DNA of 64,000 bases from Eledone cirrhosa (lineage: Eukaryota): positions 744,001-808,000 of the forward strand of contig OZ024747.1 of assembly GCA_964016885.1 (NCBI GenBank), in the 5' to 3' direction. The position numbers were made by a program, and so were the translations under genes. Below the pieces are notes generated by a model. It saw only the letters and a program-made list of their open reading frames with translations, was not told the DNA's origin and did no database searches. This document shows, piece by piece, positions 29,231 to 57,127 of this stretch; the stretch's first letter is position 1; every line of letters begins with the position of its first letter.

Positions 29231-29819
29231 GATATATTATTTTACACACTCACTAACCATTTACCTGTTCAGCACTTTGCATATCAACCTCAAACCTCTC
29301 CACCGTTCACACTAAACTGCTTATTTATTATTCATGATCTACTTTGATGTGCTCTCACTAACAGTTTTACATTACTGTTGCAGTTGCTGCTATTGTTGCC
29401 TCTGACAACAACAACAACCTGCTATTGCTGTGTTAGCCTCGTTGCTCTAACTCTCTCATCTATCTCCAACATTAACTCTCTACTAATTATCTTCTCAAAA
29501 CTTAACTAACCAACAAACCCACTGAACAGCTTGTCAACCATCATGAATAAACATGTGAGTGAGCAGAACCATGCATCTAATTTTACTTATATATTTTATG
29601 TATTTATTTATTTTAATTTCCATTTCCCCTTTTCTCTGAAGATTTTTCCAACTTTGCCTTATACTTCATCTGTGAGGTTTTCACTGTTTATTGTTTATGT
29701 AACCCTTTAAAAGTGTGTGTGTGTCTGTGTGCTTAGTTTCTTAGAAGATTCTGTTTTGAACCTAGAGTCTCATCAGGTCGAATCTTATCTCATTGGCATT
29801 ACACAATTGAGAGTATGAG

Positions 29820-29968
29820 ATATGCCAGTCTGTTGCAGGGTTATTACTAGTGCTCTTTTTTTTCCACCTGAATGGACAGGCGCAATGAGAAAAATGTACT
29901 ACACAATCTGAGAATCAAACCCAGAACCTTATGATTATGAGCCCAACGCCCTAACCATTAGGTCATAA
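29820..29968 (-). mobile_element. tRNA-head SINE, family 1 (degenerate)
   Basis: Minus strand TGACCTAATGGTTAGGGCGTTGGGCTCATAATCATAAGGTTCTGGGTTTGATTC, a tRNA-like head. Confidence 0.55.
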
Positions 29969-30157
29969 ACCTACACAGGTTCACATGATACTAATTTGGA
30001 GATCATAAACTTACATGAGTTCACTTGATACTAGTTTGAAGATCACTCACCTACACAGGTTCACTTGATCCTGATTTGGAGGTCACACACAAAGACTCAC
30101 TTGATATTAGTTTGGAGGTCATAAACCTACAGAGGTTCACTTGATACTAGTTTGGAA
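29961..30157. repeat. ~41-bp degenerate tandem repeat, about 5 copies
   Basis: GGTCATAAACCTACACAGGTTCACTTGATACTAGTTTGGA-like units. Confidence 0.85.
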
Positions 30158-30514
30158 ATCTATGAAGTGTTTATGTATCCTGTTTCATCTAAAATATTTA
30201 TTAAATGATTGTAAAATATTTTCTAGTTGTTTGTTGATTATCAATGTATTGTTCTTGACATACTCATTATCCCAAACACCAATGTTTCACCCATGTCATA
30301 CAAATTGTATTTATCTGTAAATTGATAGCCCAGTAAATCTGATGAGAAAAGATATCTGTAGTTGACAGATCTCCACAATGTCATTTAATTACAGCTAAGC
30401 TAGCAACATTTGTCTTCCATATATATATATTTGTATTTGTCAGATAATTAACTTCTGTTTAGACATTATGTTCATATCTGTTTTAGAGAGCTTAATAATA
30501 CGGTTATTAGTTGG

Positions 30515-31399
30515 CTGGTCATCTCTACATCTGTCTGGTCATCTCCTCTACATCTGTCTGGTCACCTCCTTTACATCTGTCTGGTCATCTCCTCTACATC
30601 TGTCTGGTCATCTCCTCTACATCTGTCTGGTCACCTCCTCTACATCTGTCTGGTCACCTCTACATCTGTCTGGTCACCTCCTCCACATCTGTCTGGTCAC
30701 CTCCTTCACATCTGTCTGGTCACCTCTACATCTGTCTAGTCATCTTCTCTACATCTGTCTGGTCATCTTCTCTACATCTGTCTGGTCATCTCCTCTACAT
30801 CTGTCTGGTCATCTCCTCTACATCTGTCTAGTCATCTCCTCTACATCTGTCTAGTCATCTCCTCTACATCTGTCTGGTCATCTCCTCTACATCTGTCTGG
30901 TCACCTCCTCTACATCTGTCTGGTCACCTCCTCTACATCTGTCTGGTCACCTCCTCTACATCTGTCTGGTCACCTCCTCTACATCTGTCTGGTCACCTCC
31001 TCTACATCTGTCTGGTCATCTCCTCTACATCTGTCTGGTCATCTCCTCTAGATCTGACTGGGCATCTCCTCTACATCTGTCTGGTCACCACCTCCACATC
31101 TATCTGGTCACCTCCTCTACATATGTCTGGTCTCCTCTACATCTGTCTGGTCATCTCCTCTACATCTGTCTGGTCATCTCCTCTAGATCTGTCTGGTCAC
31201 CACCTCTACATCTGACTGGGCATCTCCTCTACATCTGTCTGGTCACCACCTCCACATCTATCTGGTCACCTCCTCTACATATGTCTGGTCACCTCTACAT
31301 ATGTCTGGTCATCTCCTCTACATCTGACTGGTCATCTCCTCTACATCTGACTGGTCATCTCCTCTACATCTGTCTGGTCATCTCCTCTACATCTGTCTG
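30515..31399. repeat. 23-bp minisatellite (TCATCTCCTCTACATCTGTCTGG) with 20-bp variants
   Basis: Head-to-tail units with no spacers. Confidence 0.95.
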
Positions 31400-43968: not shown

Positions 43969-44579
43969 CATGTCAGGTCACCAGTTGGTGCTACTGGTAA
44001 CATGTATCCCAGTACAACCTGTCTCATAGTCGGGTCGTTGGCGACTAAACTGGCAACCCCACCAAGGTTTCTTGGTGAGGAGGGTGACTGGACATCCTGC
44101 GGGACTAAAAACAAAACCTGTCAAAGGGCAAAGGAGCTCTAAAGAGTCAATGGCCATCCAAAATCACCGGAAGAGATGACTCCTTAGCCTTTGTCAAGGC
44201 AGAATTCTAGGAGAAGGAAAACTCTGATATAACACCTGCAACCCTGATGATATGCAATGATGTTGACTTGTTCTTCTTTTTGGTAAATATCATCTTGGTT
44301 AAGAGAGTGGGACTGGCTTTGTGCAGTGCCTTTGCTCACTATAAAAGCTTCACGGCACAGGCATTGCTTTATATCTGGAGATCTCTCTGCACTTGTCGTC
44401 ACATGGTACCATGGGCCCAGCACTGTGTGTCAATAATTGTCACGAGTGTAGTGTTTGTACCAGAGTTTTCAAGTCGCTGGCTGGACTAAAAAGTGACACT
44501 CGTTCAGCGTATCGGTAGGGGTTCTCCTACGTGGATATAAAGTAGTGGCCGTACTCGAAAACGAGTTCGCAGCAACCAT
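43969..44579 (+). mobile_element. Bipartite non-autonomous RTE-like element (5' UTR joined to 3' end)
   Basis: The 5' part has RTE-leader-like motifs (GGCAACCCCACC, TAGGAGAAGGAAAACTCTGAT). The 3' part is the WRSLC...C2H2 relic shared with 31950-32157. No RT. Confidence 0.6.
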
Positions 44580-44587
44580 ATATATAT

Positions 44588-44621
<34 letters not shown>

Positions 44622-44624
44622 CGT

Positions 44625-44658
<34 letters not shown>

Positions 44659-44676
44659 TGTATCGTTATATATATA

Positions 44677-46541
44677 TCATCGTTAACTGTTATAAGGGTA
44701 AAGGAGACGCCCTAGATAGGAGTAACTATAGAGGCATTAAATTAATCGACCAGGTCATGAAGGTCACGGAAAAAGTAATAGCGCAACTAATCAGAGAGAG
44801 AATTGACCTAGATGAAATGCAGTTCGGGTTTGTGTCAGGCAAAAGTACCACAGACGCTCTTTTCATAGTACGACAACTACAGGAGAAGTACCTAGCTAAA
44901 GGTAAACCCCTCTACTTAGCTTTTGTCGACTTGGAGAAAGCCTTCGACAGAGTCCCCCGCTCCATTATCTGGTGGGCTCTTAGAAAACTAGGCGTTGACG
45001 AATGGCTTGTGAGGGCTATACAAGCCATGTATAAAGAAACAGTCAGCAAGGTTAGAATTAACAACGAATATAGTGAAGAGTTTAGCGTAAAAGTTGGCGT
45101 CCATCAGGGCTCTGTTCTCAGCCCACTACTATTTATTATTGCCCTTCAGGCTATAACAGAGGAGTTCAAGACAGGCTGCCCATGGGAACTCCTATACGCA
45201 GACGACCTGACACTCATAGCGGAATCAATGGCCGAGCTAGAGAAGAAATTCCAAACATGGAAGCACGGCCTAGAGTCAAAAGGACTTAAAATTAACCTGG
45301 CTAAGACCAAAGTACTAGTTTGTAGGAAAGAAAACAAGGCGGCGGTCCCTTCTGGGAAATGGTCGTGCTCGGTGTGTAGGAAAGGCGTAGGTAGAAACTC
45401 CATTTTATGTCCTAAATGCAAAGTATGGGTGCATAAAAGATGTAGTGGGATCACAGGTAAGCTAACTAAGAACATAGATTTTACATGTGGCCGGTGCTCT
45501 GGTGCAATAAGTAGCAGCAAGTGCCCACAAACTACTAGCTCTTTCAATTGCGCAGAGGGTTCTATAGAAATAGTGGACAGCTTCCGTTACCTGGGCGATA
45601 AAATCAGCAGTGGGGGAGGGTGCTCTGAAAGTACTGTAGCTAGAGTCAGAACTGGTTGGAAAAAGTTCAGAGAGCTTATACCACTATTAGCTGCTAAAGG
45701 GTTCTCACTAAAAATGAAAGGCAGGTTGTACGATGCCTGCATACGAACAGCAATGCTGCATGGCAGTGAGACCTGGGCATTGTGTGCAGAGGATATACGC
45801 AGACTAGAGAGGAACGAAGCTTGCATGCTCCGCTGGATGTGTAACAGTAATATACGTGAACGGCAAAGCATAAACGAACTAAGGAAAAAATTAGAGATAA
45901 GAGGGATCAGATGTTGTTTACTCGAGAGAAGGCTACGTTGGTATGGACACGTGATGCGCATGAAAGTCGATAGCTGTATAACAAAGTGCAGGGCAATAAA
46001 GATAGACGGTAGTCACGGAATAGGCAGACCTAGAAAAACCTGGGACGAGCTGATAAACTCCGACATCACACACTTACACCTCTCCAAGACAATGTAACTG
46101 GACCGAGACCTTTGGCGGTACTCAGTAACAGAGAAGACCCGCCTTACCTAAATATATAGTAAAACCTACTCCAGCCAGTAGGCATCTCTAACAAAATACA
46201 CCCCGTCCCACCACCCACACCCCCACCCCATCCACACCACCCCGTTCTATGTAAAGTTATGTTGGTGCCGCGCCATCGAGGCCGAAAGAAATGAGATCGT
46301 GTAGGTGTCACGACAAAAAAACACACAGTCCACGCTGTAATGTGGCCGTGTAGGCAACACGGTAAAAACCTCCCAGACCCACACTGTAAATGTGGTTGGT
46401 GTTAGGAAGGACATCCAACTGTAGAAAACCTGCCAGACAGTCCTATGCGAGCAAGACAATCACTCTTGCCTCAAGTGGGACTACCCCCGTCCAAACCCAT
46501 GCAAGCGTGGAACACGGACGTTAAACGTTGATGATGATGAT
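44677..46541 (+). mobile_element. RTE-clade LINE family A, 5'-truncated
   Basis: RT ORF to 46097. The premature TAA corresponds to TCA in the inverted copy, and the natural stop is at ~46151. Followed by a 3' UTR and (GAT)n tail. Confidence 0.92.
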
Positions 46542-48398: not shown

Positions 48399-49409
48399 AT
48401 AACTTTGAATAACTTAGAAATGTTTTGGCCAGTATTGGCCCGGGCCATGTCTAACTTAATAGCACCACCTGGCGAAGTCTTTCAATTCAGGATTTGGGCA
48501 CCATGGCCCATTCGAGAAGAGATTACTGTTTGCGGAGACATATCCGGGTGTGGGTGGTTTGTCCGGGATTATTTGGAGGAATTTGTCCAAAGACTTCTTG
48601 AATTTTGTGTGGTCAGTTTCTGTTTTGATGTGTCCTGGTGTGATGTTGAAGAGAGCAGGGCCGATTGAGGTGAAATAATTGTGCCGTATTGTTGTTATGA
48701 GTTGCGATTTAGATTTTTGTATGGGATGGATAGCACGGGGCCCAAGCCTTGGGTGTATCTTGAAGGCGATGCCAACATCATTTGGGCAGTGATGATGGAA
48801 CATTTTCCACATCATGCAGATAATATAACGCTCACGGCGACGTTGGAGTGAGTAAAGTTTCAGGTTTTCTAGTCGACCCCAGTAGTCAAGGTCTGACATG
48901 CCATCTATCTTTTTCGTGATTGCCCTTTGAGGAGCTTCAAGTTTCATGATACTTTGTTTCGTGTGGGGAGACCACAGTGGTCAACAGTATTCAAGGTGTG
49001 GTCGGGCAAAAGTAGAGAAGAGAAGGATAATGGTGTGGGAATCTCTCGACTGGAAGGTTCTGAGGATCCAGGAACACATTCTGCGGGCCATGTCAACTTT
49101 GCTGCTTATATGCGTGGCCCAGCTTATGTTGCTGTCCACGGTTACTCCCAAGTCTCTGATGTTGTTAGATGCCACGAGAGTTTCCCCGGAGGGAAGGGAG
49201 TACGGGAGTTTCAGAGCATCCTCTTTTCCAAAGTGGATCAGTTCGAATTTGTCTTCGTTCAGTAACATGTTGTTCTTTTCCGCCCATTGGGTAACAGCCA
49301 GTAGGTCTGACTGAAGGCTTATCCGGTCATCCACGCCATTGATGACCTTTTGGAGCTTGGAATCATCAGCGAAAATTTTAATGTTGCTGTGTTTGATGAT
49401 GTCAGTGAT
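48399..49409 (-). mobile_element. Second, shorter copy of the CR1/L2-group LINE at 483-2058
   Basis: Near-identical to 483-~1494. It has gained a TGA stop (~48981) and a 1-bp deletion near the C-terminus. Confidence 0.92.
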
Positions 49410-50250: not shown

Positions 50251-50850
50251 CGGGCTTTACCCGTTCGAGAAAGGCTCTACAGACACGGGCGCCCGGGTAG
50301 GGACCCCGCCAAAAAGATCTGTCCCAGATGCGTGTGCGACGAGGAAACCGTTGCACACGCATTGGTACACTGCTCGGGCGTAGCCGATCTGTGGGGCTAT
50401 GTCGAACAACTGCTGTCAAGGGTGGGACCGACCCGGTTGACCACCGAGTCTATTGTAATGATCAAGCCGCCTCCCCCCTTCAAAGATGAAGCAGAGGCGG
50501 TGTTTCTGTGCGTAATAGCCATGGCGAAAGAGGTTGTATGGTGGACGTGTCTGAAAGGACTGAGGTCAGGCACCTTTCTCTCTGGCCAACAACTGGTCCG
50601 TTTCTTCCGTTATCATTTCGGAAGAAGGATCAGGATGGAGAGAGAGGTGCTGCACCCCAGCCGTTTCTATGAAAGATGGGTGAAAGTGGCGAGAATGGCC
50701 CGTGTGAATGGGCCTTCACTCTACATCAGACTATAGGTGAGGAAGATGAAAGACGAAGGGAGCACCCCTTCTCTGTGCTCCTGAGGAGAAGGGTTGCACA
50801 CTTTTTTCGGGGGTGTGTGCGACCCCCCAAGGCGCCTCCTCTCTATTGAA
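50251..50850 (+). mobile_element. 3' fragment of an L1/Tx1-like element (related to 10380-10900)
   Basis: CPRC...[24 protein letters not shown]...EREVLHPSRF...VNGPSLYI aligns by eye to the C-terminus of the element at 7663-11097. Confidence 0.85.
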
Positions 50851-51190
50851 AAGTACAGGAAAGGCAGATTTCAAAATGATTTTTTTTGCTGGTCTAAAAA
50901 GATCTACAACTTGAGAGGTCAGACAGCTTGATAGCTGTGTGGTGTATGGGGGAGGTGTTTTTTTGCTGTTTAGATGATGATTATGCAGGTGGTCCAAAAA
51001 GATCTACAGCGTGGGAGAGAGATTGAAAGTTGGGCAATAAATGGAGACATCTTTTGCTGGATTTGTAGTGCTGAGTAAAAGCTGTCCAATTTGTAGGATT
51101 GGTGCTTTTCTTCAAGTGTTGTGTTTTGTATACATTGTGATTACAGTTTCTTGTATTATTCACTATTTTTATTTTATGTCTGTCTTCCAG

Positions 51191-51310
51191 TTTGAGCCAA
51201 CCACTGAAGAAACCAGTGACTTTCTGAAGGTGACAGCAGAACTGCAAGAGTGTGTACCTGCAGGGGTCCTTATACAGGAATTGGGGAGCTCTATATCAAC
51301 TGATATTAAA
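51191..51310 (+). CDS. MAVS-like CARD/death-domain tail-anchored protein, first visible exon
   Basis: Acceptor TCTTCCAG and donor AAA|GTTTG. 120 bp, phase 0/0, FEPTTEET...ISTDIK. Confidence 0.65.
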
Positions 51311-52684
51311 GTTTGGTACATTTATTTTATTTTTGTTCTTGTAACACATTTGTTTTACATGAACTGTCAACTAGCAACATTAGGATTGTATATGAAAGGT
51401 AATGTAGGGGCCTTAACTCCTGAAGGAGTCATACACACCATCTTTATATGACTATTAGCATGCTGAATTTATTTATGAATTGCTTCCCTTGACACTGCAT
51501 TAACGGGAGATTACTCTATCAGCGCCCAGAACGTGCTGAAGGTTAAACCTGGTGAAGCCCATTTCTCTTCAGGAAGATCATAAGCTGGTTTCTTGCAGAG
51601 AAAGAGACTTGATCCCCAGTATTTCACTGGTACTTTATTTACCAACCTTGAAAAGATGAAAGACAATGTTGACATCAGTGGGACTCGGCGTGCAGTGAGC
51701 TGGAAAAAATACTGAAGTTTGACAGCCCCCAACAATTCAGTTTAACTCCTATGATAACCTCTTATATGGGGTCTCTAAGGTTGGTGGATTGGCAGACTTG
51801 GTAGACTGTTGGATACCATTGAGATAGTTGTTCTGGAACTTTCTGAGTTCAAATATTATTTTTGTTTAGCTTTTGTTACTGTGAAGACCGGCTGACCACC
51901 CAGCCCACCACCCACCTGACCTGCTAAGGTAAACATAATGCAACTGGCAATATTAATATTTCAAGCTAACAACAGAGAATGGGGAAAACAAAGTAATATA
52001 AACACACGCACACATACACTCACTGATACACATACTCACTAACACACACACACAAAACATAATTAATTTTTTAATGACTGAAATGGTCATAAGGAGGAAG
52101 CTAATTGTTCTTCATTTATATACATCTTTGAATATGTATGTATATATGTGTTTGTGTGTGTATATATATATGCATGTGTGTTTGCATATATATATCTTTC
52201 TGGGAGATCAGTAGGTTTGCTTCAGTACTGACTTAGTCTATGTAGACTTGTTCAACCCTTGCTAACAGAGAAAGCAGGCATTAAATGGTGATGATATTAG
52301 AATAGGTGCACTGTATCCCTGCATGCCGTAAGAGGCAACTGAAAGGGTTGGCATCAGGAAGGGGATTTATCTAACTGTAAAACATTCTCAAAACATCTAC
52401 CCACCCCATGTCAACAGGGAAAAGTAAGCATAAAATGTGTAATACATACATGTGTGTGTATGTGTGTATATATATATGTGTGTGTTGGTAAAGGCGATAC
52501 AAAAGGACAAGGTAGCTATATCTGGTCTTGTTTTTGTGTGTAAAATATAGAGTGCCTGGGGTAAATGCCCTGTCTGCCCTGCTATCAATCTGTCCCTCAA
52601 TATATATTGTATGTATTCCCTCTCCCAGTTGGATCCATTGATTAGCTGTTGTAAGATAGTGAAATAAATCTCTGCTTTTCTCAG

Positions 52685-52856
52685 GACCAAATCCAATTGG
52701 AATATGAAATAAAAGAGAACGAAGCTGCTGTGAGTTGTTTACTTCAACACTTAGTATTAAGAGAGCAGTGGCAGTTGAGATTAGCTGATGCTTTACTTAG
52801 TTCAAACATCAACCTACCTGACTTAGCTGACAAATTGAAACCTGACACGCAAGAAG
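52685..52856 (+). CDS. MAVS-like protein, exon (CARD-like helices)
   Basis: Acceptor TTTTCTCAG and donor AAG|GTGAG. 172 bp, phase 0/1, DQIQ...EAAVSCLLQHLVLREQWQLRLADAL...LADKL. Confidence 0.8.
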
Positions 52857-53169
52857 GTGAGTTTATTTATGTCATTTACACAGTGTTGACTACAACCATT
52901 TGAATGTTGAAGGGTTAAATACAACCAGTTCTAAGGCCATTCTCCTGCTAAAGCAATACAGAATGCATGATAAGTTTAATTCTATCCAAAGGGTACTTCT
53001 TAAGGTAATGTTTTATAATCAGGTACATTTTCTGACACCAACCCTTTTAATCCTCCCACCCATATGACATACTAAGATAAAGTGTACTTATTCTAACCCA
53101 GATACACACAGTAAAGGGTTAAATATGAAAACAAGAATTGGTTATATTTTTGTCTTAATTTCTTGGTAG

Positions 53170-53370
53170 ATCTGGTATCTAAGAGTTACGATATTGGCAA
53201 CGAGTACATCTGTGGGAATAATAATAGATACCAATCAGAAGAAAAGGAGGTGAGCTTGAGTCTTATAGAAGAATCTAAATGGGAATCCATTCTACCAAAC
53301 CTACATGGACCCCTGAAACAATTGGACCAAGAATATCCTGACAGCTGGAGACTTTTAGCATTACATCTCG
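53170..53370 (+). CDS. MAVS-like protein, exon (start of death-like domain)
   Basis: Acceptor TTCTTGGTAG and donor TCG|GTATG. 201 bp, phase 1/1, ending LDQEYPDSWRLLALHLG. Confidence 0.8.
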
Positions 53371-54119
53371 GTATGTTGTTTATAACAAATTGTTTCGGTC
53401 ATTCATCATTTATATCTATATATTTGTAAAACTGGAACATGGCAATTAACTAACTAATTAACCTGTTAATTACTGCATAAAATTGTATATAAAAACAATT
53501 ATGTTTTAAGAGAAAGTGACCTACAACCAATTTCCTTTTGAAACCACTCCTGGTTTTATGCTACAAAACTATTTCACTGTGTTTATATCTAAAAACCTTT
53601 GCACATGAATTTGATGTAAGAACCTGTTATATTCTAGAAACAGGTTATTACCAAATCTCTCTAGATTCTTGATTTTTTTACAAAATTGTTTGGAAATCTT
53701 AGGCAATGTCTTTCATTAGAAACTTGCTAACAAAAGGGTTTTAAATGTTTGACTTTGTAATTCCTCTTGCTGCTCTAAGTATAAAGCAATTTAGACTTTG
53801 AGCTATTTAAAATACACTTTCTTTATACAATAATAATTTTAGTGATTTTTGTCGGCCATAAAAGCTAGAACTGCGAGAAAATTATGCCTTATTGATAGGC
53901 AAAACAATAGTTTTGGTAAAATTTAGACTTAACTATGGTACTTGTTTACAGCTAAACAGACAGCCATCAAGAAATGTATCATTGAAAGGAATACCTTCAG
54001 TGCCTGTCGTTACTATGTACTTCTCTTAATGGATTATATTTTACTAAAACTTAAATTTAATAGGTTCTAGAAAGATCATATGTTTTAAGATACATTAATG
54101 GGATTTCTTCTTTTTGTAG

Positions 54120-56065
54120 GTTACAATTTTGAAGAAGTATCGGAACTTGAAGTTTTAGATTTGAATACTGATTCAGGTAGCTCTCTGTTTAATCTCATTC
54201 AAAATTGGCTGATTCATACTAAATCAGATCTAGAAACTTTGTTATTTGCACTTGGAAAAATGCAGAATGCACAAGAGTTGCTGAAAAATTCTCAAATTAG
54301 TGAACACGTGCCATACACAGTTCCATTTGCTGAGGAAGGTGAGATGGAGCCTATTTTAGGTGATGGACAGAAATTAAACTCTCCTTCTAGTTTACTACAG
54401 AATATTAAAGTACAGAATGTTCAGCCAGGTGGAGAGGGAGCTATTGGTCCTCTAGATACTAACCATACATCTGACAGTTTCATAAATTCTACTTTACTTG
54501 ATCTAGACAACAATAATGATTTGCACCAACACAAATTCTCTCCAAAAGCCTTTCATGAAACCGATGTTAAGAATATCTTCCCCCATTTTGAAACTGTCCA
54601 AAATCACAGTTCTCCCAACAGTGACATTGATGAGCAAGTCCCAGAATCTGTTTCAGTGGGTATGTATGGCAATGATATGTCAGAAACAATTGGAGACACA
54701 TCAGAATTCGAATCAAGACAAGAGAGCGATGATGCAACACTTGATATTCCTGTTTTAAAGCCGGTTCCTAGACTTAGTCCCGTACTGGATGAAGTTCAAA
54801 CTGATGGCAACCTTGTTTCACCAACCTTGACTCCCGTTCATCCACCAACTTCACTTATTGAGCCAATGGTGACACCTGATTATTCATCATCTCCTACTTA
54901 CTCAAAGGAGTCATTATTATCATCATCATCAACCAATCAGGGTACTCCTGACATGTTTAACTTTTATACTAACAACGATTCTTCCGAGAAATTGGTTTCA
55001 AGTTCATTATTTGACAAGGACTCTGTTGCAGCTGATGTTTCAGACTTAATGTCTAGTTCTTCAGCTCTTCAAGATGACTGCATGTCTCCTACCACTGAAC
55101 TATCCTCTAAAATACACAAACATAAAGAAGCCCAGGAACTGAATGAAGATGATACTATAAACCGAAACAATGTCTTAATAGAACCAAGTTCCAATGATGT
55201 CCTTGAAGACTTTGATAAAAATATTATACTTGATGATGGAAATGTTGCCAAAATCCCCTTGGAGATTGCTGCAGACAATCCAAAGCCATCTGTAGAGACT
55301 ACTGAAAGAGTTGGTGACCATACAGATTCAAGTTTGAGTATGGAAGAATATAATTCTAAAGAGAAAGTGTACACAGAACAACAACAAATAACTCTGAGAG
55401 AAAGTCCACGGGATAAAGTTAAATTGACGAAGTCTACAGAAATAGAGGAACCTGCAAATTCTGAAGGTGGCATCCAAAATTATGTATCAGATATTTTAAA
55501 CAATTCTGAAGTAAATATAGGGCAAACTGAAAGCAGTTCTTTAACAGACAGCTCGTTTGAGATGATTATGAGTGAAAATGTGGCTGACTTGAAGAGTAAT
55601 GTGTGTGGAGATATTGCTATGGATCATTCTGAAGAAATGAGTCCAAAAGATGACTTCCAGGCTGAAATATCTACAGAGACTATGAATACAGATCTTAAAG
55701 AAACTCAACATGAAAATGTGCCATGTGCCTCGGTGGATGAGAAAATCTCAACTGAAATAATAGATTCTGTAAGTGGTATTGGTGTGATAAAAACCAACTG
55801 TAAAGAAATTTCAGATGAAAGCCTTAGAAATTCTGGAGAATCTGAGATTACAAACAAACACGACAGTAGCATAGAGAAATCTGCTGTTAAAATTGTTCGT
55901 TCAGCTATTGAAGCTGCCGTCCAGTTGGAATCTGAGAAGCCATCATCAGTGCCATCGGAGAAAGATCCGAAGAAACATTTTAGTTCTGAAAAAATCAGTT
56001 ATTTTGTTATAGCAGCAGCTATTCTTAGTACTACATTGATTTTAGTACATAAGTTCTGGAAATAA
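54120..56065 (+). CDS. MAVS-like protein, terminal exon (death-like domain, acidic Ser-rich region, C-terminal TM anchor)
   Basis: Acceptor TTTTTGTAG in the matching phase. 1.9 kb open frame with YNFEEV...LIQNW...LETLLFALGKM, ending ISYFVIAAAILSTTLILVHKFWK*. Confidence 0.9.
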
Positions 56066-56349
56066 AGGAAGAAATGGGACGTGAATATGATTAACTTTTA
56101 TCACTTCCTATATATATGGCAGTATTGTGTAGTTTAGTATAAGATTTTGAGACTAATTATACTTTCATGGCTTGGGTTTCGTCAAAAGTAAGATGGCTGC
56201 TCTAGGGCCTACATCTAAATATTTACTAATCATAATCCACTTAGAAATTCATATTTTTCTTTACTTCCCACCAGTTTAAATATGGATAGTTTTCTACATT
56301 TATTCTAAATTATTTACATTCCTGTATTTGTTTTTGGATTTGCTATAAA

Positions 56350-56355
56350 AATAAA
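56350..56355 (+). promoter_or_regulatory. Candidate polyadenylation signal
   Basis: AATAAA about 285 bp after the stop, followed by T-rich sequence. The background is AT-rich, so this is weak. Confidence 0.35.
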
Positions 56356-57127
56356 TAATATATTATTGGTTTTATTTGAAGAGGCACCAGTCGATGTAAG
56401 GGCAGGGTAGAGGTGAGATAAGTTGATTGAATCAGCCTCAATATATATTTTATTGATTTTTAGAGAACCAATAAACTATGAAAGTTGCTGTTTACAGGAG
56501 TGAATTTTACCCCCTCCTCCCTGCCATGATACTTAGGTCTGTGTGGACTGACAGTTAAGAATAGATTACAATACTGTTGATGAAAATGTTTGTGAGATTG
56601 TATATAACAGGAGAGGTTGTTGTCAGAGGTTTGATGTTCTGAGAAGATAAAGAGTAACCATGTAATGTGTTTTAACAGCAGTCAGTACAGCTTCTGTACA
56701 TCTATAGACACGCATGAAAGAAATGATGTGCCAGCATAAATTGGTTAAAAAATGTAAACCAAAGAGAACAATGTTGATGTGCTATGAGAAAAGGTAGAAG
56801 TTAGTATTTCTGGAGGAGTCTGTTGTTGGAAAGTCTTGTTTAACCCTTTCATTACCATATTTTGGGGAAAGAAGGATCAATAAATTAAGTTCTGGTGTAT
56901 CGATTGCTTGATCAAATCAATTGACAAGATATCGGACCTCATTCACTTACCAAGTGGGGTGGAACTTGTCAAATCGGTCCAAGGAAACAATGTTTCCATT
57001 GTTAATATCATCTGCCAATTGCAACTCCTGGCAGAAAGAGCAACAGTGTCTTGCTGAAGGACATAGCACACAGGCTGGTCTAGGAATCGAACTCGACAAC
57101 CTTTCTTCAGAAATTTGTGGGTTTGTG

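Follow-up and report, generated by a model that had tools for sequence, protein, structure and literature searches.

A candidate octopod MAVS in Eledone cirrhosa, with a CARD, a death domain, a predicted membrane tail and a putative PKA-anchoring helix

The locus considered here lies in a stretch of 64,000 nucleotides from the octopod Eledone cirrhosa (GenBank assembly GCA_964016885.1, contig OZ024747.1, positions 744,001 to 808,000 of the forward strand), which we call the window and in whose numbering bare coordinates are given. It holds a gene of five coding exons, including a start micro-exon, with a product of 816 residues in which a CARD, a death domain, a long acidic linker and a hydrophobic tail follow one another. 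The gene is likely the octopod MAVS. An initial annotation, made from the letters alone, had proposed a divergent MAVS-like antiviral adaptor, and this interpretation is supported by the comparisons and models described below: a CARD of the class found in RIG-I-like receptors (RLRs), a death domain and a tail stand in the same layout as in the oyster protein CgMAVS (PMC5557890). The features of the gene are as follows, X1 and X2 being coded sequencing runs of one study; the assembly may have been built from X2.

29543..29554, plus strand: start micro-exon, coding part Met-Asn-Lys-His (MNKH), with a phase-0 donor CAT/GTGAGT and a possible acceptor AG at 29529-29530
51191..51310, plus strand: coding exon, first half of the CARD (residues 5-44 of 816), covered exactly by an X1 contig
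52685..52856, plus strand: coding exon, second half of the CARD, spliced in X1; alone it matches Pfam CARD_2 at E 0.0043 (profile positions 39-82)
53170..53370, plus strand: coding exon with an Asn-rich linker and then the front of the death domain, which begins at about 53271
54120..54298, plus strand: start of the last exon, remainder of the death domain, with the ATG of Met216 at 54260
54299..55870, plus strand: acidic, Ser/Thr-rich linker, likely disordered, matching no Pfam family
55871..55918, plus strand: amphipathic helix IEKSAVKIVRSAIEAA, residues 753-768, a predicted A-kinase anchoring protein (AKAP) site for docking the regulatory subunit of protein kinase A (PKA)
55994..56065, plus strand: single C-terminal transmembrane helix of about 18 residues, basic tail HKFWK and stop
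56066..56900, plus strand: 3' untranslated region, at least to 56900, with 323 more letters in the X1 contig

The four exons that the initial annotation had joined (51191-51310, 52685-52856, 53170-53370 and 54120-56065; 120, 172, 201 and 1946 nucleotides) have AG acceptors and GT donors at all four, run in phases 0/0/1/1 and give 812 codons and a stop, as it had said. Two of the three joints, from 52856 to 53170 and from 53370 to 54120, appear as GT..AG splices in X1 contigs at a depth of about 100, and it is because of these joints that X1 is taken as transcript-type, the kind of run not being on record; X2 covers the same region unspliced. At the third joint X1 contigs end at 51311 and begin at 52685, with no contig shown spanning the two, and three orthologous proteins are continuous across it. 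The donor of the first of these exons is weak (AAA/GTTTGG, five of nine positions to consensus). Considering this donor, the 0-0 phase of the 120-nucleotide exon and the contig break at 51310, in-frame skipping of the exon is possible, and none was seen; the lower contig depth here, 49 where the later exons have 101, is given no weight in this question.

The 812-residue frame is thus continuous as annotated, but it has no start codon, its first Met being residue 212. Since the MNKH micro-exon supplies the missing start, the full protein is placed at 816 residues by orthologue match and frame. Twenty-nine candidate ATG-bearing exons with a phase-0 donor were found in the upstream 91 kb, and one of them encodes MNKH, the first four residues of the Octopus bimaculoides orthologue (P0001). 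The pattern occurs once in the window, where 0.03 matches are expected by chance, and has no copy in the other fetched loci; its donor fits the consensus at eight of nine positions, its start context is good and a possible acceptor stands 12 nucleotides upstream. Another ATG stands at 51177 in the frame of the 51191 exon, but it was not accepted as the start, because it lies inside the pyrimidine tract of the acceptor and is bypassed by the X1 splice. In 111 kb upstream nothing coding matched the long N-terminal regions of the O. vulgaris, O. sinensis or Argonauta proteins, and the start of O. bimaculoides isoform X1 has no upstream match either.

Searched with the last exon, the databases gave proteins of O. 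bimaculoides (P0001, 823 residues) and O. vulgaris (P0002), and the N-terminal region as query brought in one of Argonauta hians (P0003); their identities to the window protein are 54%, 52% and 36%, respectively. Their database names are "dentin sialophosphoprotein-like", "uncharacterized" or "Death domain-containing", much as the initial annotation had guessed in expecting no better than an uncharacterised entry. The gene is single-copy in its own genome in all three exon searches. When a profile of the octopod N-terminus was run against 1.84 billion proteins, four hits were returned: P0001, P0003, a 74-residue CARD fragment and a protein of the bivalve Solemya velum. The last is the best full-length hit outside octopods (E 5.7e-5, 25% identity) and aligns over both domains, with CARD_2 at E 5e-16 and Death at E 3e-13. 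Sequence-word searches with the octopod protein returned matches only in octopods, or the query itself. Two unnamed protein pieces from Logan, P0004 and P0009, are 39% identical to the second CARD exon and may represent this gene in a remoter relative. The Argonauta protein, a partial model, has about 650 residues of acidic repeats (residues 1-650) ahead of its CARD, and this region finds no match upstream of the window gene.

Sequence profiles and predicted structure confirm the N-terminal domain as a CARD of the RIG-I/MDA5/MAVS class, in keeping with the CARD-like helical segment of the initial annotation, whose quoted motif is present. The full CARD was tested on the orthologues, and the structure prediction used the O. 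bimaculoides N-terminus, which is 71-78% identical to the window exons. Pfam assigns CARD_2, and not CARD (PF00619), in all three orthologues, above the cut-off of 28.2 bits in P0001 and P0002 (31.7 and 33.2 bits). A profile of an alignment (A3) that joins the octopod N-terminus with the Solemya row gave 30 PDB hits at E<=1, 17 of them CARD rows and 13 death-domain rows. Every one of the 17 CARD rows is RIG-I (best E 3e-11), MDA5 or MAVS (E 1e-4), and among the 30 hits there is no CARD of a caspase, Apaf-1, RAIDD, NOD or ASC; single-sequence searches of the PDB gave nothing significant. AlphaFold reached a predicted local distance difference test score (pLDDT) of 44.9 from the octopod rows alone and 69.7 once the bivalve row was added, and in the O. 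bimaculoides model the CARD scores 83-91 and the death domain 60-81. The top VIA-align match of this model is the MAVS CARD 4p4h_I (Z 12.5, root-mean-square deviation 2.6, 96 residues aligned).

A death domain after the CARD is likewise confirmed, by weak Pfam Death hits (E about 1e-3) together with a fold match: residues 141-235 of the model match the Myddosome death domain 3mop_K (Z 8.2, root-mean-square deviation 2.9, 91 aligned) and that of p75NTR (Z 7.9), and p75NTR is also found among the death-domain rows of the profile search, at E 8e-6. The death-domain motif quoted in the initial annotation is present as well, and the AlphaFold comparison that it had proposed for the N-terminal region returns a MAVS CARD as its top match, together with a death domain. 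Moreover, three-way identity is 48% in the CARD and 67% in the death domain, against 16-22% in the linkers, which argues that both domains are translated and selected.

The acidic tract that follows is present as first described (D+E 19%, S+T 21%, K+R 7%, Pro 6%) and has a three-way identity of 22%. Within it a few islands, DNNNDL, LxIP, NLVSPTLTP, PMVTPDYSxSP and DHSExxSPKxxFQ, are kept from Octopus to Argonauta, and it is possible that they are proline-directed phosphosites or docking motifs. The single C-terminal hydrophobic helix and the HKFWK behind it are also as annotated: the best 19-residue hydropathy is 2.03, against 0.94 for the best segment elsewhere in the protein, and in all four octopod sequences tested the tail has a grand average of hydropathy of 2.1-2.6 (18-residue cut) and a charge of +2. 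These values fall between the mitochondrial and endoplasmic reticulum classes of PMC5450235. By analogy with oyster and vertebrate MAVS, the tail would insert into an organelle membrane, most likely the mitochondrial outer membrane, with the endoplasmic reticulum or the peroxisome as alternatives.

Twenty-five residues before the tail stands an amphipathic helix that the initial annotation had not singled out, and we lean slightly towards reading it as a dock for the dimer of PKA regulatory subunits. The AKAP consensus is LxxxAxxIVxxAIxxA (PMC3682517), and the helix fits six of its seven positions in each of five octopod sequences (the window protein, P0001, P0002, P0003 and P0008), three of which are near-identical Octopus proteins; the test followed a sighting by eye. 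None of the five has all seven, the remaining position being conservatively changed from L to I, or from A to V in Argonauta. The helix-level consensus score was reached by 1 of 3000 shuffles, with 1.5e-4 expected per protein, and no second such match turns up when the window and the fetched loci are read in six frames (535,700 positions). Nowhere else in the C-terminal part is the hydrophobic moment as high, and the helix keeps a three-way identity of 69%, against 23% in the spacer after it; its aliphatic face is kept and its polar face varies. Because the region around it is otherwise disordered, it should be exposed.

The genome itself encodes PKA RI and RII docking domains, and a predicted complex of the helix with its own RII docking-domain dimer scored 0.40, a weak value, against 0.10 for the best of three controls; at least 90% of the contacts are common to the runs, and the pLDDT of the partner is 66. 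The benchmark for this score, which is made up without peptides, has 51 of 78 solved complexes at the mark, against 2 of 108 mismatched pairs (39/65 and 2/126 in eukaryotes), and scores of 0.60 or below held only 5 of the 78 solved complexes and all 4 of the passing mismatches (of 180). Since AKAP-RII complexes have already been solved, the score may show likeness only.

The best-surviving alternative grants the MAVS-like adaptor and disputes the helix alone, which would dock some other D/D-fold protein, pack on the membrane or self-associate. We consider this distinctly less probable than PKA docking, though a real contender. In its favour, the genome has another docking domain of the RIIa family (L003), which we take to be of the ropporin/SP17 type, and the complex score is low; the AKAP helix predicted in talin proved not to be the true site (PMC10990152). 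Likewise, queries of 27 and 81 residues around the helix found no Pfam family at E<=10, and the four PDB hits of the helix include no AKAP peptide, in a PDB set without chains under 20 residues, both searches being limited by query length and filters. The protein also has no classic PKA site ([RK][RK]x[ST]). The agreement of all five sequences with six consensus positions, the kept aliphatic and varying polar face and the exposure within a disordered region nevertheless argue for PKA. In the same genome, on the minus strand at G000:C20:30.395-30.397 Mb (L005), there is an intronless gene for an RII-type PKA subunit in one frame of 409 codons, possibly a retrogene, alongside an intron-bearing RII gene on C1 (L004).

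Several results weigh against the identification of the gene as MAVS. CARD_2 falls below the Pfam cut-off in Argonauta P0003, and Death does so in all three orthologues (E 0.0008-0.002). The MAVS match in VIA-align is tied, within 1 Z, with Apaf-1/caspase-9, MDA5 and RIG-I, and Foldseek gave no match at E<=0.001, its top rows still being RIG-I, MAVS and MDA5. By sequence, the RIG-I CARDs score above that of MAVS, partly because RIG-I carries two of them; the octopod protein itself is without a helicase domain. Orthology rests on architecture, because no named full-length MAVS of a bivalve or vertebrate was retrieved for a tree or reciprocal hits, and the Solemya protein, itself unnamed, has neither tail nor helix. 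Pattern scans for TRAF motifs (PxExx-aromatic/acidic, PxQx[ST]) and pLxIS found none in the window protein and none conserved in the orthologues. Finally, a hydrophobic tail with a charge of only +2 can favour the endoplasmic reticulum (PMC5450235).

Could the protein instead be an adaptor of apoptosis or inflammation of the RAIDD/CRADD kind, one that is tail-anchored at an organelle and there links a platform of death domains to a caspase with a CARD, taking no part in RNA sensing? CRADD has the same order of CARD and death domain, language-model features (ESM Atlas) rank CRADD-like clusters first at 0.83-0.84, and the ties with the Apaf-1/caspase-9 CARDs and the lack of conserved TRAF or pLxIS motifs point the same way. 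Atlas scores under 0.9 are leads only, however, and those clusters are 225-245 residues long, thus without the long linker; CRADD is a short soluble protein, whereas this one has 816 residues, a long linker and a tail. Considering also that the CARD is of the CARD_2 class in 3/3 orthologues and that none of the 30 profile hits was a RAIDD or caspase CARD, we regard such an adaptor as improbable.

The gene also shows a start-skipping transcript. An X1 contig joins the 51191 exon to a non-coding exon 91 kb upstream, beyond the window, with its end at G000:C7:704135. This exon runs from about G000:C7 703990 to 704135 (L006:1380-1526); the 147 nucleotides read contain no ATG and place an in-frame stop three codons ahead of the joint. 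Its last codons, DRKQRRI*SSK, resemble DRAEEPRISSSK of the O. sinensis model, and the long N-termini of the O. sinensis and O. vulgaris proteins, translated from sequence resembling the end of this exon, may be model artefacts. On the skipping transcript four short out-of-frame AUG reading frames precede the first in-frame AUG, Met216, from which a product of 601 residues would be read that lacks the CARD and the greater part of the death domain; the RefSeq protein XP_052828638.1 of O. bimaculoides (P0006, 600 residues) begins at the matching Met. The skipping form thus exists, and its frequency is not given by the contigs, because they drop alternative paths. It tells against the MAVS identification that this sole 5' joint seen in RNA bypasses the start codon, so that the full-length form, with its micro-exon, is not seen as RNA.

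Perhaps, then, the locus mainly makes an organelle AKAP or scaffold, the Met216 form being common and the form with both domains minor or tissue-restricted, as the observed joint with its upstream stop, the RefSeq start and the strong conservation of the helix would allow; the chance of this seems slim when set against the conservation of the CARD and death domain over the linkers, the keeping of the MNKH micro-exon in two species that share only 54% identity in this protein, the four out-of-frame AUGs ahead of Met216 and the loss of alternative paths from contigs.

A candidate receptor for the adaptor is encoded in the same genome. On the minus strand at G000:C5:78.83-78.915 Mb (L014-L022) there is an RLR gene with two CARD_2 exons (E 1.5e-6 and 5.2e-4), a DECH helicase and a C-terminal domain, the sole RIG-I_C-RD match of the genome search, and IRF genes give seven matches. 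A recent origin of the adaptor from the CARD exon of this RLR finds no support: hhalign gives it a probability of 0.3%, and neither RLR CARD hit is interrupted at profile position 39, the site of the intron in the present gene. Human MAVS reportedly has an intron inside its CARD after about residue 39, which the two genes may share. A genome search with the CARD_2 family matched nothing, this gene included, and is hence uninformative.

This kind of protein is already known from bivalves, and the octopod helix and start-skipping form are additions to it. CgMAVS of Crassostrea gigas (KY630189) has a CARD, a death domain and a transmembrane segment, binds the CgRIG-I CARDs in a manner that depends on that segment, binds TRAF6 and protects against OsHV-1 (PMC5557890), and MAVS of the scallop Chlamys farreri has the same layout (PMC11103948). 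As in the octopod, the CARD is N-terminal, a death domain replaces the proline-rich region, the transmembrane segment is C-terminal, and a single gene accompanies a CARD-bearing RLR in the genome (PMC5557890, PMC11103948). The comparison is one of architecture, the octopod CARD and death domain being divergent (25% identity to the Solemya protein), and the available portions of the two bivalve papers mention neither a PKA-anchoring helix nor a start-skipping isoform.

With vertebrate MAVS (IPS-1/VISA/Cardif) the octopod protein shares the RLR-type CARD fold, a disordered middle and a tail anchor, and a coding exon of human MAVS ends after residue 97 (PMC5536018), near the octopod phase-1 intron at the end of the CARD. 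It differs in its extra death domain and in a linker that is acidic rather than proline-rich; the proline-rich region with TRAF2/3/6 motifs and pLxIS of the vertebrate protein was not found in it, and oyster MAVS also lacks a proline-rich region (PMC5557890). The Met216 product recalls miniMAVS, a form without the CARD from a downstream Met, Met142 (PMC11763982), which arises from two starts on one mRNA, whereas the octopod short form would come from exon skipping. With known AKAPs the likeness is the consensus helix, here adjoining a membrane anchor; there is no homology beyond its 16 residues, and docking is a prediction from sequence and a modelled complex.

How would such an adaptor signal? 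Beyond gene structure and domain identity we infer the steps, taking filament nucleation, tail insertion and signalling towards NF-kB and IRF from oyster and vertebrate MAVS. Viral or self double-stranded RNA (dsRNA) would free the CARDs of the two-CARD RIG-I-like receptor, and these would nucleate a filament of the adaptor CARD by CARD-CARD assembly, as in the solved assemblies of RIG-I with MAVS (PMC11874512). With the adaptor anchored by its tail in an organelle membrane, the death domains, once clustered, would draw in a partner that has one too and so pass the signal towards NF-kB/IRF. As no TRAF or pLxIS motif is conserved, the most likely route of output is indeed the death domain, which is the best-conserved part. 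Close to the membrane the helix would tether PKA, placing a cAMP-gated kinase on the signalling platform as a brake on the adaptor itself. PKA phosphorylation is known to inhibit human MAVS, and the available text of that paper is without the words "AKAP" or "anchoring" (PMC5626498); a literature search found no study of MAVS as an AKAP, most subscription journals being outside its coverage. Skipping of the start exon would supply a form without the CARD comparable to miniMAVS, and we suggest with some hesitation that this Met216 product damps aggregation as miniMAVS does. Equally tentative is the wider proposal that the octopod MAVS is its own AKAP, wiring cAMP, hormonal or neural, into antiviral sensing, with a 12-base start exon that switches between the full adaptor and a damping PKA anchor.

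The surroundings of the gene are repetitive. Its large intron holds reverse-transcriptase-like retroelement frames at 44541-46097, 48456-49314 and 50251-50736 and long (TA)n arrays, and the segment around 48669-49290 recurs as a near copy around 753-1395. Tandem arrays of 40- and 23-nucleotide units lie at 29960-30160 and 30523-31399, just downstream of the start micro-exon.

Two papers that report no MAVS in abalone and Aplysia each raise the question of a divergent copy that goes undetected (PMC11103948, PMC9334734). A further study includes the O. bimaculoides RLRs and, in the portions available, not its MAVS (PMC8998645). Our literature search, with the same limit on subscription journals, found no study of cephalopod MAVS, and three cephalopod papers name MAVS only in a figure legend or in references. 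The present locus shows how a divergent candidate can lie hidden under the name "dentin sialophosphoprotein-like", with one current RefSeq model dropping the CARD and death domain. If the helix reading is true, a MAVS with a built-in AKAP helix would be one way to hard-wire a PKA brake on MAVS. Cephalopods recode much of their RNA by ADAR, and because of this extensive recoding the sensing of self-dsRNA is a live question in these animals. With the likely octopod MAVS described here, cephalopods gain a complete candidate RLR-MAVS-IRF axis, and one that is testable.

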